From Thermaerobacter sp. (lineage in GTDB: Bacteria; Bacillota; Sulfobacillia; Thermaerobacterales; Thermaerobacteraceae), in the NCBI GenBank assembly GCA_036562425.1, contig DATCKH010000156.1, forward strand, positions 1 to 54,585: a DNA stretch of 54,585 nucleotides. Reading direction: 5' to 3'. A model generated the notes under the pieces. It was given only the letters and a program-made list of their open reading frames with translations, did no database searches and was not told the DNA's origin. Of this stretch, positions 38,468-44,286 are shown one piece after another. Numbering within the stretch: the first letter of the stretch is position 1; each line of letters begins with the position of its first letter. The position numbers were made by a program, and so were the translations under genes.

Positions 38468-39154
38468 ATGACCAAGCAGCCACCCCTGGCAGGACGCAGC
38501 GAGCCCAAGCTGCAGGAACGCTACGAGCAATTGCTGGCCGCCGCCGAGGCGTTCGCCACCCGCGGGTACCACCAGACGACGGTGAAGGACATCGTCGAGC
38601 GGGCCGGTGTCGCCACCGGTACCTTTTACCTCTATTTCACCAACAAGGAGCAGTCGTGCGCGGCGCTGATCGAGCGCCTGTACCAGCGCGTGCTGGCCGA
38701 GGTCGCCGCCGCCCGCCAGGGGCGCCGGACCAAACTGGAAAAGCTGGCCGCCTCCATCGAGGCGGCCTTGCGCGTGTTCGGAGAAGAGCGCAACCTGGCC
38801 CATATCGCCCTGGTGCGGGCGCCCGGAGCCCACCCCCTGTTCGACCAGCTCCTGGCCAGGATCCAGCGCGAGCTCTGGGATCTGGTGGCGGAGGACATCA
38901 AGGAGGCCATCGCGGAAGGGCTCCTGCCCTCCCAGCCCGCCACCATCACCGCCCGGGCGCTGATCGGTTCCCTCTACGAGGTGGTGATCAGCTGGCTGCA
39001 GGACGGCGTGCCCGCTACCCTCGACGAAGCCATCGACCCTCTGGTGAGATACTGCCTGCGGGGCCTCGGTGCACCGGAGGCTCTGCTCACCGCTTCCACA
39101 TCGCTCCTTCCCGGCGCTCACCGGGAGGCGGCCGCCGAAGACGGCGCCCGCTAG
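38468..39154 (+). CDS. TetR/AcrR family transcriptional regulator
   Basis: GGAGGAG lies 8 nt upstream. The HTH signature is ..[34 protein letters not shown]..; 228 aa. Confidence 0.9.
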
Positions 39155-39681
39155 GAACGGGCCGCCATCGCGGCGGCGCCGGCTCGAGGCGGCTGTTCCC
39201 CGGCCTGCCCCGGCTCCCCGGGAAGCAACCGCATCAAATTGCCCATTTCCAGGGCAGCCAGGGCCGCTTCGGCGCCCCGGTTGCCCGCCCGCACGCCCGT
39301 GCGCTCCACGGCTTGTTCCAGGGTTTCGCAGGTGATGACCCCGAAGATGACCGGCACCCCGGTGGAAAGGCTGACCCGGGCGATACCCTGGGCCGCCGCA
39401 CCCGCCACGAAATCGAAATGGGCGGTAGCCCCGCGAATCACGGCACCCAGGCAGATCACCGCGTCGTACCGGCCCGACCGCGCCAGGCGGCGGGCTACCA
39501 CCGGCAGTTCAAAGGCGCCGGGCACCCAGGCCACGTCAATGTCTTCCTCACGGACCCCGTGCCGCCGCAGCGTATCCAGCGCCCCTTCCAGCAACCCCGC
39601 CGTCACCGGCTGGTTGAACCGCGCCACGACGATCCCGAACCGCAGGCCCTCCCCGACCAGCGACCCTTCGAAGACGGCCAT
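39151..39681 (-). CDS. ribH: 6,7-dimethyl-8-ribityllumazine synthase
   Basis: [23 protein letters not shown].., with GGGAGGTGGAG upstream; 176 aa including a short A/G/P tail. Confidence 0.93.
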
Positions 39682-39900
39682 CCGGCTCCACCTCCCTGTT
39701 TCCCGGCACCTTCCCGGCACCGTGAGTCACCGTGCGTCTCCACCCCTCCCCGGACCGGCGCGTGCCCGCCCGGGGACAGCCCGCAGCCCCCGGGGCTCAC
39801 GAGCCGGGGCCGGGCGGGCGGAAGCAGCGACGTGACGGGGATACAGGGTGAAGCAGGAAACACAGGACGAACGGGACGAACAGGACCAGCGGTCAACAAC

Positions 39901-41907
39901 TCAGAGCCAGTGCCCCAGTTTGGCCCGCTTGGTTTGCAAGTAACGTTCGTTGTGCGGGTGGGGCGGTACCCGCAGCGGTACCCGCTCGCTCACCGCGAGC
40001 CCGTATTCGACCAGCTGTTCTTGCTTGTCGGGGTTGTTGGTGAGCAGGCGTACCCGCCGCACGCCCAGGTCCCGCAGGATCTGGGCCGCCACACCGTAAT
40101 CCCGGGCGTCCGCGGGGAAACCGAGGGCCTGGTTGGCCTCCACGGTGTCCAGCCCCCCATCCTGCAGCTCATAGGCGCGGATCTTGGCCGCCAGCCCGAT
40201 ACCGCGCCCTTCCTGGCGCAGGTACAGGAGCACCCCCCGGCCCTCGGCCGCGATGGCCTCCAGGGCGGCGTCCAGTTGCTGGCCGCAGTCGCAGCGCAGG
40301 GAATGGAGCGCGTCGCCCGTCAGGCACTCACTGTGCAGCCGGACCAGCACCGGTTCTTCATCCGCCCAGGAACCCCGCACCAGGGCGAGATGGGTCTCGC
40401 CGGTGGGCTCGAAGGTGTACGCGTGGACCTGGAAATCCCCGTGCACCGTGGGAAGCTTGGCCTGCGCTACCCGGCGCACCACGCGCTCGTGGCGCAGCCG
40501 GTAGCGAACCAGGTCGGCCACGCGCACCAGCCGCAACCCGTGACGGCGGGCGAAGGCCGCCAGGTCGGGCAGCCGGGCCACCGTCCCGTCGTCACGGAGG
40601 ATCTCGCAGATCACCGCCGCGGGGTACAGGCCGGCCAGGCGGGCCAGGTCCACGGAGGCCTCCGTGTGCCCCCGCCGCGCCAGGACGCCGCCGGCGCGGG
40701 CACGGAGCGGGAACACGTGCCCGGGGCGAACCAGGTCGCCGGGGCCGCTGGCCGGATCCACCGCCACGCGGATGGTACGGGCCCGGTCGGCGGCGGAGAT
40801 GCCGGTGCGCACCCCCTCCCGGGCGTCAATGGAAATGGTGAAGGGCGTCTCCATGGGGTCCCGGGGCGGGTCCACCATCAGCGGCAGGTCCAGTTCGCGG
40901 CACCGCTGCTCCGTCAGAGCCAGGCAGATCAGGCCGCGGGCCTCCCGCAGCATGAAGTTGATGTGCTCCGGCGTCACCTTCTCCGCCGCCAGGACCAGGT
41001 CGCCCTCGCCCTCGCGGTCCTCGTCGTCCACCACCACGACCATGCGCCCGGCCCGGAGGTCAGCCAGCGCAGCCTCGATGGGGTCCGCCATGCCCGCGGC
41101 CGGGTCGCCTGGGTCCCCGCCGGGTCGCCGCCCGTCGCCGCCACCGGCACCGGGACCGGCCCACGGTGCCTGGAGCGGGCCTCCCCCGATGGAGACCGGC
41201 ATTCCGCCGGGGCCTGCGTCCTCTGCCCCCCGGGGCGCTCCCCAGCCTCCGCTTGGGAGGCCGGAGCGGCCGTCATCTCCGCCGCCGGTGGCGGTGACGG
41301 CAGGAGCCGCCCGGAGCGGGGCAGCGCTGGATGTCCAGCGCCGGGCATACTTGGCCACGATGTCCGCTTCCAGGTTCACCAGGTCCCCCGGGCGGCGGGT
41401 GCCCATGGTCGTGCGCTCGGCGGTGTGGGGAATGACGGCGACGGTGAAGCCCGTCGCGTCGCACTCCACCACCGTCAGGCTGATGCCGTCCACCGCCACG
41501 GACCCCTTGGGCACCACGTATGCCATGAACTCCGGCGGCGCCTCGATGCGGAACCACAGGGAGTTGCCCGCTGGTTCCCGGGCGGCGATGCGCCCCACCA
41601 CGTCCACGTGGCCCTGGACCAGGTGACCGCCCAGCCGGTCCCCCAGCCGCAACGCTCGCTCGAGGTTCACCGGATCCCCGGCCCGCAGGTGCCCCAGCGT
41701 GGTCACCCTGAGGGTCTCGGGCACCACGTCGAAGGCCAGTTCCTCCCCCGCCACCGCGACGACGGTCAGGCACACCCCGTTGACCGCCACGCTGTCACCG
41801 GCGCGAACGCCCTCCCAGCCGGGCGCGGCCACCACCAGCCGCCGGCCGCCCCCGGCCGGTTCGACCCGCCGGCAGGTTCCCAGCGCTTCGATCAGTCCCG
41901 TGAACAC
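39901..41907 (-). CDS. ribBA: riboflavin synthase (RibE) fused in frame to DHBP synthase / GTP cyclohydrolase II (RibBA)
   Basis: GTG 41907 has GGAGGAGGGGAG 5 nt upstream. [10 protein letters not shown]..two lumazine-binding repeats..[11 protein letters not shown] is followed by an ~85-aa G/P/A linker with no stop. Then come [26 protein letters not shown].. (RibB) and ..[19 protein letters not shown].. (RibA); 668 aa. Confidence 0.9.
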
Positions 41908-42018
41908 CCCGTCTCCCCTCCTCCGAACCCGGACCCTGCGTGCCCAGCAGAGCCGGTTCCACTCGATCCACCGTCGCCCGCCCCGCCGGCGGCCACGACC
42001 ACCGGCGGCCATGGCCGC

Positions 42019-43275
42019 TCACGGGCCACCGGCGCGCGACACCCCCGGCGCGGTGGCCGAAAACACGTCCAGCGGTAGAGTCGCGGGATCCCGCAGGTAC
42101 CCTTCCACCAGCCAGTCGTCGCCCAGGCGCCGCAGCCTGACCCGGTGGAGGCGCAGGGCACCGGCCATGCGGTCCACCCCCGGCCCGCCGACCGGCCCCG
42201 GCGCGCCGGCGCCGCCCACCAGCTTGGGAGCGATGAAGGCCAGCACGTGGTCCGCCAGGCCCGCCGCCAGGAGCGCCCCGTGAATGGCCGCCCCGCCCTC
42301 CACCAGCACGTGGCGGATGCCCCGCCGGCCCAGTTCCACCAGCAATTCCGCCAGGTCCACCCGGCCCTCCGCCGTCGCCGGCACCCGGAGGACCTGGGCT
42401 CCGGCCGCCTCCAGCGCCCGCACCCGGTGGGCCGGCGCGCGCTCGGTCACGGCGATCCACGTGGGCGCGGGAGAGGCGGCTGCCGCGCGGACCACCCGGG
42501 CGCCCGGCGGCGTCCGCGCCTGGCTGTCGATGACCAGCCGGATGGGATCCCTGCCCCCCCGGGGCAGGCGGGTGGTCAGGCACGGGTCGTCCGCCAGCAC
42601 GGTGCCGATCCCGACGGCGATCAGGTCGACCCGATCGCGCAACCGGTGGACGAAGCGGCGGGCGGCGTCCCCCGTGATCCAGCGGGCATCGCCGCGGCGG
42701 GTGGCGATCCGCCCGTCCAGGGTCATGGCGTACTTCATGGTGATCAAGGGGCGCCCCAGCAGGTTCCAGGCCAGGTAGGCCGCGTTGAGGCGGCGCGCCT
42801 CTTCCTCCAGCAGCCCCACCTCGACCCGGACCCCGGCGGCCCGCAGGGCGGCCAGCCCCCGCCCCCGCACCCGCGGGTCCGGATCCACCATGGCGGCGAC
42901 GACGCGCCGGATGCCCGCCCGGATCAAGGCGTCGCTGCAGGGCGGCGTCCGCCCGTAATGGCAGCAGGGCTCGAGGGTCACGTAGAGCGTCGCGCCACGC
43001 GCCCGGTCACCGGCCTGGCGCAAGGCCTCCGCCTCCGCATGGGGAGCGCCGGCGCGGCGGTGGAAGCCCTCGCCGACAACCCGGTCGTCCCGCACCAGGA
43101 CCGCCCCCACCAGCGGGTTCGGGGTGGTGCGCCCCCGCGCCCGGCCGGCCAGGGCCAGCGCCCTGCGCATCCAGCGCCTGTCCTCCTCCGGCCAGTTCGC
43201 GGCCGGTACGGCCGGCTGCCACCCGCCCGCCGCGGGCGCGGCCGGCAGGCTGCCGTTCCCTCCCAGGGGGTTCAT
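42019..43275 (-). CDS. ribD: bifunctional diaminohydroxyphosphoribosylaminopyrimidine deaminase / 5-amino-6-(5-phosphoribosylamino)uracil reductase
   Basis: ATG 43275 has AAAGGAGGG 6 nt upstream. It has the deaminase zinc motif (HAEAEAL..TLEPCCHYGRTPPC) and a reductase domain. The 644-aa track ORF is an artefactual upstream extension. Confidence 0.93.
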   Translation of the reverse strand: MNPLGGNGSLPAAPAAGGWQPAVPAANWPEEDRRWMRRALALAGRARGRTTPNPLVGAVLVRDDRVVGEGFHRRAGAPHAEAEALRQAGDRARGATLYVTLEPCCHYGRTPPCSDALIRAGIRRVVAAMVDPDPRVRGRGLAALRAAGVRVEVGLLEEEARRLNAAYLAWNLLGRPLITMKYAMTLDGRIATRRGDARWITGDAARRFVHRLRDRVDLIAVGIGTVLADDPCLTTRLPRGGRDPIRLVIDSQARTPPGARVVRAAAASPAPTWIAVTERAPAHRVRALEAAGAQVLRVPATAEGRVDLAELLVELGRRGIRHVLVEGGAAIHGALLAAGLADHVLAFIAPKLVGGAGAPGPVGGPGVDRMAGALRLHRVRLRRLGDDWLVEGYLRDPATLPLDVFSATAPGVSRAGGP

Positions 43276-43600: not shown

Positions 43601-43636
43601 GAAACAAAGCGCCCCGGCGTCCGTTCACCGGGGCAG
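43601..43636 (-). terminator. riboswitch-associated intrinsic terminator (expression platform)
   Basis: On the minus strand, GCCCCGG tgaacggacg CCGGGGC is followed by GCTTTGTTTC, about 110 nt downstream of the aptamer 3' end. The preceding CCTTTCCTCT could pair with the aptamer P1 3' strand. Confidence 0.55.
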
Positions 43637-43749: not shown

Positions 43750-44058
43750 CCTCCTTCTCCCATCCGGACTATACCGTCGGCGCCGGGATCTCACCGGACT
43801 CCTGCCCGCCGCCAGTCCGGGGTACTCCCCGGCATGGACCGCCCCGGACCACCCGTGCGCCGGCACGGGCGGGCCGGTCCACGGCGGCAGGCTCGCGGGC
43901 TCGTCGCGGGACCGCGCCGGCAGAACCATTCCGGCCGCTGCTCCGGCCCTCACGTGCCGGCACCGGAGCCGCCACCCGGTACGGCCAGGCCGTCGAGGTC
44001 CCGCGCATCACCGCCGGTCGGGAATTGGGCTGCCGCCCTCACCCTGCCCCGAAGGAGA
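43750..44058 (-). promoter_or_regulatory. FMN riboswitch (RFN element) of the rib operon, unusually long
   Basis: The minus strand reads TCTCCTTCGGGGCAGGGTGA..AATTCCCGACCGGCGGTGA..AGCCCGCGAGCC..GTCCGGTGAGATCCCGGCGCCGACGGTATAGTCCGGATGGGAGAAGGAG. All conserved RFN blocks are in order and P1 is CTCCTTC/GAAGGAG. Confidence 0.88.
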
Positions 44059-44286
44059 CACAGACGTCACAACCGGTTGTCGCGTTGTACCCGCCCCGAA
44101 GGGGCGTGTCTTGCAAACCAGTATAAACGGAGATTCCTGGCGCTGCCAGGGGCCTGCGGGCCTAGCCACACCACGGCGCCCGGCATGTGCTGGACGGGAT
44201 ACGGCCGGCGGCGGACAGCGGTGCAATGACTCTTCGTCCCGTATAATCGGCCCTCTCTCACCGGGCCGGCGTCGCGGCCTCTTCCC

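Follow-up and report, generated by a model that had tools for sequence, protein, structure and literature searches.

The rib operon of Bacillus subtilis has the gene order ribDG-E-AB-H-T, and RibE and RibAB are encoded by separate cistrons (PMC9048828). In Bacillus and Aquifex, the trimer of riboflavin synthase (RibE) is loaded into the 60-mer of lumazine synthase (RibH) by means of a free C-terminal signal; the C-terminal peptide of riboflavin synthase is the signal for encapsulation and binds R29 of lumazine synthase (PMC13376624). Here we describe the rib locus on contig DATCKH010000156.1 of Thermaerobacter sp., of which a stretch of 54,585 nt (hereafter the window, on whose numbering all positions are given) was analysed. 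This locus resembles the B. subtilis operon in its gene order, its control by a flavin mononucleotide (FMN) riboswitch and its enzyme families (PMC9048828). In B. subtilis, however, RibE and RibAB are separate proteins, whereas in the window the C-terminus of RibE runs into RibBA. We consider it likely, with a probability of roughly 80%, that the ribE and ribBA cistrons of a Firmicute-type rib operon have here been merged into one trifunctional gene, referred to below as ribEBA. The features on which this reading rests are the following.

41913..41924, minus strand: Shine-Dalgarno (SD) sequence of the fused gene, GGAGGAGGGGAG, anti-SD duplex -12.3 kcal/mol
39901..41907, minus strand: fused ribE-ribBA open reading frame (ORF), GTG start, 668 amino acids (aa) plus TGA; orthologous fused ORFs exist
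41323..41907, minus strand: riboflavin synthase module, aa 1-195, two Lum_binding barrels plus the C-terminal helix 183-195
41092..41322, minus strand: linker, aa 196-272, Gly/Ala/Pro-rich and predicted to be disordered, with a predicted local distance difference test score (pLDDT) of 27-38
41089..41091, minus strand: in-frame ATG (Met273) at the canonical position of the RibBA N-terminus, without a Shine-Dalgarno sequence
40498..41091, minus strand: 3,4-dihydroxy-2-butanone-4-phosphate (DHBP) synthase (RibB) module, aa 273-470, recognised by PF00926, TIGR00506 and invariant residues
39904..40497, minus strand: GTP cyclohydrolase II (RibA) module, aa 471-668, recognised by PF00925, TIGR00505 and invariant residues

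The stop-free minus-strand frame spans from 42012 to the TGA at 39903-39901, and the GTG at 41907 is a sensible start within it, as it yields the universal riboflavin synthase N-terminus (M)FTGLIEALG. A 703-aa version beginning at ATG 42012 was rejected, since it lacks an SD sequence (-5.1 kcal/mol) and would carry a 35-residue Arg/Gly-rich extension that is present in no homolog. A sequence-only reading of this DNA had proposed that one continuous ORF at 39901-41907 joins RibE to RibBA through a stop-free Gly/Pro/Ala-rich linker of ~85 residues (about 41350-41092), that the internal ATG at 41091-41089 has no SD sequence, and that RibH remains a separate protein encoded 219 nt downstream. The continuous ORF was borne out by both the frame analysis and the domain searches; the linker was found as described, with a length of ~80 residues; the ATG of ribH (39681) lies exactly 219 nt past the stop; and the weakness of the internal ATG was confirmed by an anti-SD duplex of -3.0 kcal/mol, compared with about -12 kcal/mol for ribE, ribH and purD. 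The further statement that nearly every gene of the window is preceded by a strong GGAGG holds for ribE, ribH and purD, the three genes checked. The domain scan suggested at the same time recovered two Lum_binding domains, DHBP_synthase and GTP_cyclohydro2, all in a single ORF.

The riboflavin synthase module is complete. Two Pfam Lum_binding domains lie at aa 1-182 (173.6 bits, far over the cut-off), the NCBIfam equivalog model NF006767 is matched over positions 1-190 of 192 with 233 bits against a cut-off of 155, and TIGR00187 (NCBIfam) scores 210 bits against a cut-off of 156.6. Among the matches listed, free-standing riboflavin synthases from numerous phyla share 57-65% identity with the module, whose predicted structure reaches a template modelling score (TM-score) of 0.95-0.96 to Brucella riboflavin synthase. 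Residues F2, S39, C46 and H100 align with F2, S41, C48 and H102 of the Escherichia coli enzyme (1I8D) and are invariant in the clade to which the protein belongs; we take the equivalents of E. coli S41, C48 and H102, together with the N-terminal MFTG motif, to be important on the strength of the mutagenesis literature. At the C-terminus of the module, where riboflavin synthases have the helix of the trimer coiled coil, helix 183-195 is predicted and the NLExDxxAKY motif is kept, after which the chain enters the disordered linker.

The two modules that follow the linker are complete as well. PF00926 DHBP_synthase matches aa 278-469 with 286.6 bits over model positions 1-191 of 191, and TIGR00506 (NCBIfam) is matched over positions 1-204 of 204; the TM-score of this module to RibB structures is about 0.9. 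Residues D294, R298, E299, E301, G302, D303, H397 and T415-E416 are all present and do not vary across a set of 76 homologs, fused and unfused; the acidic residues of DRExEGD and the His of the GHTE motif are presumably active-site residues of DHBP synthase. In the RibA module, PF00925 GTP_cyclohydro2 is matched at aa 479-644 (244.5 bits, model positions 2-165 of 165) and TIGR00505 (NCBIfam) over positions 2-191 of 191; the Pfam scores of both modules are far over their cut-offs, and the model has a TM-score of 0.96 to E. coli 2BZ0. The family-invariant residues C528, C539, C541, Y562, E566-R568 and K575 are kept, and we assume the three cysteines, constant in those 76 homologs as well, to be the zinc ligands of the enzyme. 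The whole RibBA part (aa 273-668) scores 613 bits with NF006803 (NCBIfam), whose cut-off is 569. Bifunctional RibA2 of Mycobacterium tuberculosis (PDB 4I14) aligns with residues 275-667 (E = 2.8e-135) and superimposes on the model with a TM-score of 0.82 at 48% identity but, unlike the window protein, has no riboflavin synthase module; a search of the PDB found no chain covering both RibE and RibBA. In the AlphaFold2 model, built on a 76-sequence alignment, the mean pLDDT is 87.4, each of the three modules exceeds 90 and residues 196-273 fall below 50. Judged by their family-invariant residues and confidently predicted folds, all three modules are intact, and within the 54.6-kb window no second copy of ribE or ribBA was found.

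The signals for translation point to a single start. The 22 nt preceding ATG 41091 (CCCAGGCGACCCGGCCGCGGGC) form an anti-SD duplex of just -3.0 kcal/mol, to be compared with -12.3 for ribE, -12.2 for ribH and -11.6 kcal/mol for purD, and few of the 55 in-frame start-like codons in the ORF have a weaker duplex. A consensus scan found no internal promoter-like site inside the fused gene or its linker. Met273 is conserved in none of eight relatives with the same arrangement, which have D/E-P-V-x-R-V at that position, and their alignment reveals no SD sequence ahead of RibBA either. Since both Met273 and the SD sequence are missing in the relatives, separate translation of RibBA does not appear to be a conserved feature.

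These relatives carry the strongest evidence for the fusion. In a homolog search covering 5.8 billion proteins, with strains assigned by exact look-ups, an in-frame RibE-linker-RibBA ORF was found in six cultured strains and two metagenomic relatives. The cultured carriers are T. marianensis DSM 12885 (ADU51529.1, WP_013495833.1, UniProt E6SMN7), T. subterraneus DSM 13965 (EKP95693.1, K6Q354), T. composti, T. litoralis, T. sp. FW80 and T. sp. PB12/4term; the best match to the window protein, at 62% identity, is P0002, which is encoded on a metagenomic contig. In T. marianensis the fused gene is part of a complete-genome record of 2.84 Mb, and a public read set, when assembled independently, gives the identical protein. 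When the window protein was aligned with its eight relatives (nine sequences, alignment A1), RibE was found to be conserved through the motif NLExDxxA(K/R)Y, after which the sequences become unalignable until the alignment returns at the N-terminus of RibBA; over aligned columns, the window protein is ~60-61% identical to the Thermaerobacter fusions. In a tree of the RibBA part, the window protein, P0002 and the Thermaerobacter proteins form one clade (P0001-P0009) beside an unfused protein, this being a simple neighbour-joining distance tree without support values. The flanks are likewise common to the window and T. marianensis, with purD upstream and genes for a TetR protein and a (polysaccharide) deacetylase downstream, and the two PurD proteins are 75% identical. 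Taken together, the orthologous fusions, the common flanks and the single clade suggest that the fusion is older than the divergence of these lineages and did not arise as a fault in this contig. The comparison with related rib operons that the sequence-only reading had called for thus yielded an in-frame fusion in eight relatives, a complete-genome record among them, and its claim of a genuine three-activity polypeptide gains comparative support, which is itself drawn from sequence.

The window protein shares with the Thermaerobacter fusions the succession of two Lum_binding domains, low-complexity linker, DHBP_synthase and GTP_cyclohydro2, as well as a leader of the FMN-riboswitch type, and differs from them in several respects. 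Its linker is the longest of the clade save that of P0005, and it alone has Met at the N-terminus of RibBA. The Thermaerobacter proteins, in turn, contain a variable low-complexity insertion of ~15-65 aa in the GTP cyclohydrolase II domain (A1 columns 520-580) and long C-terminal tails, both of which are lacking in the window protein. In T. marianensis the order is purD, an FMN-type leader, ribEBA, an opposite-strand TetR gene and the polysaccharide deacetylase gene, so that ribEBA stands alone between purD and the TetR gene (L081, CP002344.1 1690088-1700202). Neither ribD nor ribH is present in this 10-kb T. marianensis locus, whereas the window keeps both on either side of ribEBA; as the T. 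marianensis gene has no adjoining ribD or ribH, the rib genes are apparently dispersed in Thermaerobacter. No free-standing Thermaerobacter RibE occurs among the matches listed, a list that is uninformative on this point since the fused proteins are missing from it too.

The closest unfused relative sampled, the Bacillota metagenome-assembled genome (MAG) GCA_029961055.1 (L084), offers a view of the arrangement without the fusion. Its genes are ordered ribD-ribE-ribBA-ribH, like those of the window, and its proteins are 64% (RibE), 71% (RibBA), 66% (RibD) and 73% (RibH) identical to their window counterparts. The stop codon of the 199-aa ribE of L084, TGA, shares bases with a GTG (as GTGA) that is preceded by GGAGGTGG (L084 3940-3965), a junction that suggests a translational coupling signal; the same sequence suggests that the deposited start of L084 ribBA (4001) was placed ~40 nt too far downstream. 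Unlike in the window, ribE and ribBA of L084 are in different frames, and owing to the GTGA overlap a small (1-nt) indel would be enough to put ribE in the frame of ribBA.

The linker that joins the modules spans aa 191-272 by the boundaries of the hidden Markov models and aa 196-273 by pLDDT below 50. Its 82 residues include 25 Gly, 14 Ala and 12 Pro, no Pfam domain matches it, and in the relatives it is unalignable and 30-87 aa long. Tandem-repeat expansion was considered as its source and discarded, as only weak low-complexity repeats (scores 32-47) were detected. The window has a G+C content of 72.6%, and a second reading frame across the linker is likewise open. On the opposite strand, a stop-free ORF of 1140 aa (38656-42078, plus strand) spans ribH and ribEBA and extends over the end of ribD; we regard it as a by-product of the 72.6% G+C, in the light of which an open frame means little in this genome. 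Taken alone, the open frame and the missing SD sequence are weak evidence for a fusion. What lifts the case above chance, as judged from the sequences, is the frame shared by both enzyme modules together with its conservation in relatives.

Several observations nevertheless weigh against the merger of ribE and ribBA into one gene, and to the lack of support values in the distance tree the following must be added. About 65% of first-order Markov sequences with the composition of the linker are stop-free by chance. The linker also lacks the coding signature of G+C at the third codon position, its values at codon positions 1/2/3 being 0.84/0.82/0.77 as against ~0.78/0.48/0.90 in the domains, so that composition cannot confirm its translation. 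Met273 lies exactly where free-standing RibBA proteins start, and some SD-independent internal initiation could take place there. Long disordered linkers are, moreover, prone to proteolysis. Finally, both the single polypeptide and its three activities are what we infer from sequence.

If the two cistrons have merged as we propose, translation would proceed from GTG 41907, with its strong SD sequence, to the TGA at 39901 and give one protein of ~70 kDa, composed of a riboflavin synthase at its N-terminus (for the final pathway step), a flexible, unconstrained linker of ~78 residues, and DHBP synthase and GTP cyclohydrolase II (for the two entry steps). The fusion would have been inherited from a common ancestor of Thermaerobacter and the window lineage, an uncultured relative, and probably arose when a small indel struck a ribE/ribBA junction with coupled translation, an origin suggested by the stop/start overlap in the closest unfused relative sampled. 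A single ribosome-binding site would then serve all three activities, which would necessarily be produced in a 1:1:1 ratio, and the tether would set riboflavin synthase beside DHBP synthase. Of the two substrates of RibH, 5-amino-6-ribitylamino-uracil is regenerated by riboflavin synthase and the other is the product of DHBP synthase, so that both might in this way be produced side by side. Having no free C-terminus, RibE could presumably not make use of the cage-localisation signal of Bacillus and Aquifex.

Three other explanations of the locus have to be weighed against this one. That two real genes were joined in the contig by an indel or a lost stop, as an artefact of assembly or sequencing, has some plausibility in DNA in which wrong frames are often open, given that at least seven fused ORFs in databases have a RibE end that is plainly out of frame, that a 1-nt indel would fuse the genes of L084, and that the window protein is known from a single contig. 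In the window, however, RibE is intact as far as its C-terminal helix and nowhere leaves its frame, the fusion is in frame in eight independent relatives (one of them on a complete-genome record) and no SD or start signal is left ahead of RibBA; we therefore hold an artefact to be very improbable. Even less credence is due to the notion that one module, most plausibly RibE, is degenerate or a structural remnant whose activity is supplied by a gene elsewhere. Just 54.6 kb of the genome is visible, and the fused gene of T. marianensis has neither ribD nor ribH beside it, which points to dispersed rib genes in this group, but the high identity of the module to free-standing riboflavin synthases (among the matches listed), its score of 233 against the equivalog cut-off of 155 bits, the retention of F2, S39, C46 and H100 with a pLDDT above 90 and the lack of a second copy in the window all speak for a working enzyme.

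A more serious rival accepts the continuous ORF and supposes that it is expressed mainly as two proteins, through SD-independent initiation at ATG 41091 or through cleavage of the linker. The position of Met273 at the canonical RibBA N-terminus is what one would expect of an internal start, the 78 disordered residues are a target of the type that proteases attack, and the trimer/dimer mismatch discussed below points the same way. Set against this are the duplex energy of -3.0 kcal/mol at an ATG that has no SD sequence, the lack of a promoter-like site inside the gene and the absence of Met273 from eight of eight relatives, so that internal initiation is not the conserved mode. The fusion has furthermore been retained across a clade in which PurD identity falls to 75%, which indicates that the joined state is at least tolerated. 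We consider expression as two proteins unlikely, and the merger of both cistrons into one trifunctional gene accounts best for the observations.

To place the fusion in a wider frame, 80 loci were recovered with the window protein in a genome survey, of which 71 carry both ribE and ribBA; a fusion was scored by tblastn when the two genes lay in one frame without a stop between them. This frame-and-stop test flagged two loci, L002 and L078. The latter proved spurious, as its RibE match lies ~3 kb downstream of RibBA, and genome-scan rows matching residues 1-668 were likewise discarded as fusions, because tblastn aligns through a stop when genes share a frame. A true in-frame fusion is therefore found in one of the 70 other loci having both genes, namely a 641-aa protein of a Vicinamibacteria MAG (L002). 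At the protein level, 39 matches have RibBA preceded by a RibE whose C-terminal motif is intact, and they fall into several groups that lie apart on the tree. Among these is a well populated Chloroflexi clade of 621-629 aa (e.g. MBF6606112.1), in which a short linker is conserved in sequence. The same domain order and intact RibE motif occur in this clade, in P0010/P0011/P0015, in P0013, in P0016/P0020/P0021 and in L002, all of which occupy RibBA-tree branches separate from that of the window protein and have linkers mostly shorter than its own. As the fused groups sit apart on the RibBA tree, their distribution suggests that the RibE-RibBA fusion is rare but recurrent and arose in several independent events.

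Seven look-alike fused ORFs (P0012, P0014, P0017, P0018, P0023, P0025 and P0048) lose the proper frame over the final 30-90 residues of RibE and carry recurring Arg-rich strings similar to RRAGQVRR; these metagenome ORFs probably reflect indel errors, or else pseudogenes, in assemblies of high G+C content. Genuine fusions thus sit among indel-made look-alikes, which matters for the curation of metagenomes, and the intact NLExDxxAKY motif of RibE tells them apart. Still bigger rib fusions are present in a 50%-identity representative library (P0182, P0194, P0210, P0219, P0174, P0167 and P0180), with the architectures RibE-RibD-RibBA-RibH (~1100 aa), RibE-RibBA-RibH, RibE-RibH-PAPS_reduct-RibBA, RibD-RibBA and HAD phosphatase-RibBA. 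Judging by the predicted proteins, rib enzymes have been fused to one another repeatedly.

Public records have included the architecture since the T. marianensis genome of 2010, and the window contributes a divergent example from an uncultured relative; no published description of a RibE-RibBA fusion was found in the literature searched. Database names for the fused proteins include 3,4-dihydroxy-2-butanone-4-phosphate synthase, RibBA, riboflavin synthase alpha subunit and Multifunctional fusion protein. Such names hide one or two of the activities, with the result that pathway reconstructions can wrongly report riboflavin synthase or RibBA as missing in Thermaerobacter and related genomes. 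The practical value of the finding lies mainly in annotation, and its biological point is a modest one, namely that the enzyme for the final step of riboflavin synthesis can be joined by a tether to those for the first two. It further provides, in the cultivable thermophile T. marianensis, a comparison case of a natural riboflavin synthase unable to present a free C-terminal signal.

The partner of that signal is encoded downstream of the fused gene:

39151..39681, minus strand: ribH, lumazine synthase of 176 aa, with its own SD sequence GGGAGGTGGAG (-12.2 kcal/mol), Pfam DMRL_synthase

The best PDB matches of the window RibH include the cage-forming lumazine synthases of B. subtilis and A. 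aeolicus, and residues L121 and E122 are kept. The protein has a low-complexity C-terminal tail of ~22 aa, which the RibH of L083, a fused relative, does not have at its length of 154 aa. The heavy riboflavin synthase of Bacillus and Aquifex relies on a free RibE localisation signal and on a cationic residue at RibH position 29, and the window differs in both: helix 183-195 of its RibE is followed by the disordered Gly/Ala/Pro linker and then by RibBA, leaving no free C-terminus, and its RibH has Gly29. At this position Ala is found in L083, Arg in the unfused L084 and in Aquifex, and Lys in Bacillus, a pattern that is suggestive of a link to lost encapsulation, although the comparison of fused and unfused loci rests on three RibH sequences only.

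These differences lead to a further idea, which we put forward tentatively as doubtful but worth stating. Riboflavin synthase forms trimers and RibBA dimers, so that the two are mismatched in symmetry. In the Thermaerobacter lineage, the fusion could be a functional alternative to encapsulation in the RibH cage, in which riboflavin synthase trimers and RibBA dimers are held on long tethers in a hexamer or network, the RibH substrates are made side by side and the signal site of RibH has been lost in step (Gly/Ala29). A long disordered linker might, speculatively, reconcile trimers with dimers. Were the idea true, it would represent a second, independently evolved spatial organisation of vitamin B2 synthesis.

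The remaining features of the operon are as follows.

44120..44149, minus strand: sigma-70-like promoter candidate, CTGGCA, 18-nt spacer, TATACT (consensus scan, 1 site versus 0.1 expected)
43753..44060, minus strand: operon leader with a candidate FMN riboswitch (RFN) aptamer containing large lineage-specific insertions
43610..43635, minus strand: terminator-like hairpin and T-run following the aptamer
42019..43275, minus strand: ribD, deaminase/reductase of 418 aa, ATG 43275 after AAAGGAGGG, Pfam dCMP_cyt_deam_1 and RibD_C
39682..39900, minus strand: ribEBA-ribH spacer, 219 nt, unusually long

No Rfam match was obtained at the gathering threshold in the whole window or in three related loci, that of T. 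marianensis included. With RF00050, only the 3' half of the leader aligns (43848..43756), scoring 31.3 bits against a gathering threshold of 66.2 (E = 2.6e-4); the canonical 5' core at 44060-44038 was identified by visual inspection and by aligning the leader with that of T. marianensis, and both cores are common to the window and the ribEBA leader of that species (L081 3553-3770). Despite the sub-threshold score, we read the leader as an FMN riboswitch in which long insertions split the two cores. The hairpin at 43610..43635 is probably its expression platform, as its position after the aptamer suggests, and the ATG of ribD follows ~330 nt past it. By its gene content and putative signals, the unit is an ordinary rib operon (ribD-ribE-ribBA-ribH) under riboswitch control, two of whose cistrons have been joined. 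The 219-nt spacer ahead of ribH contains a pyrimidine-rich stretch followed by a GC-rich hairpin; a search for a structured RNA or second riboswitch within it gave no Rfam match at E <= 1, and its fold z-score of -1.26 is not significant. The matching ribBA-ribH spacers of the relatives measure 238 nt in L084 and 161 nt in L083.

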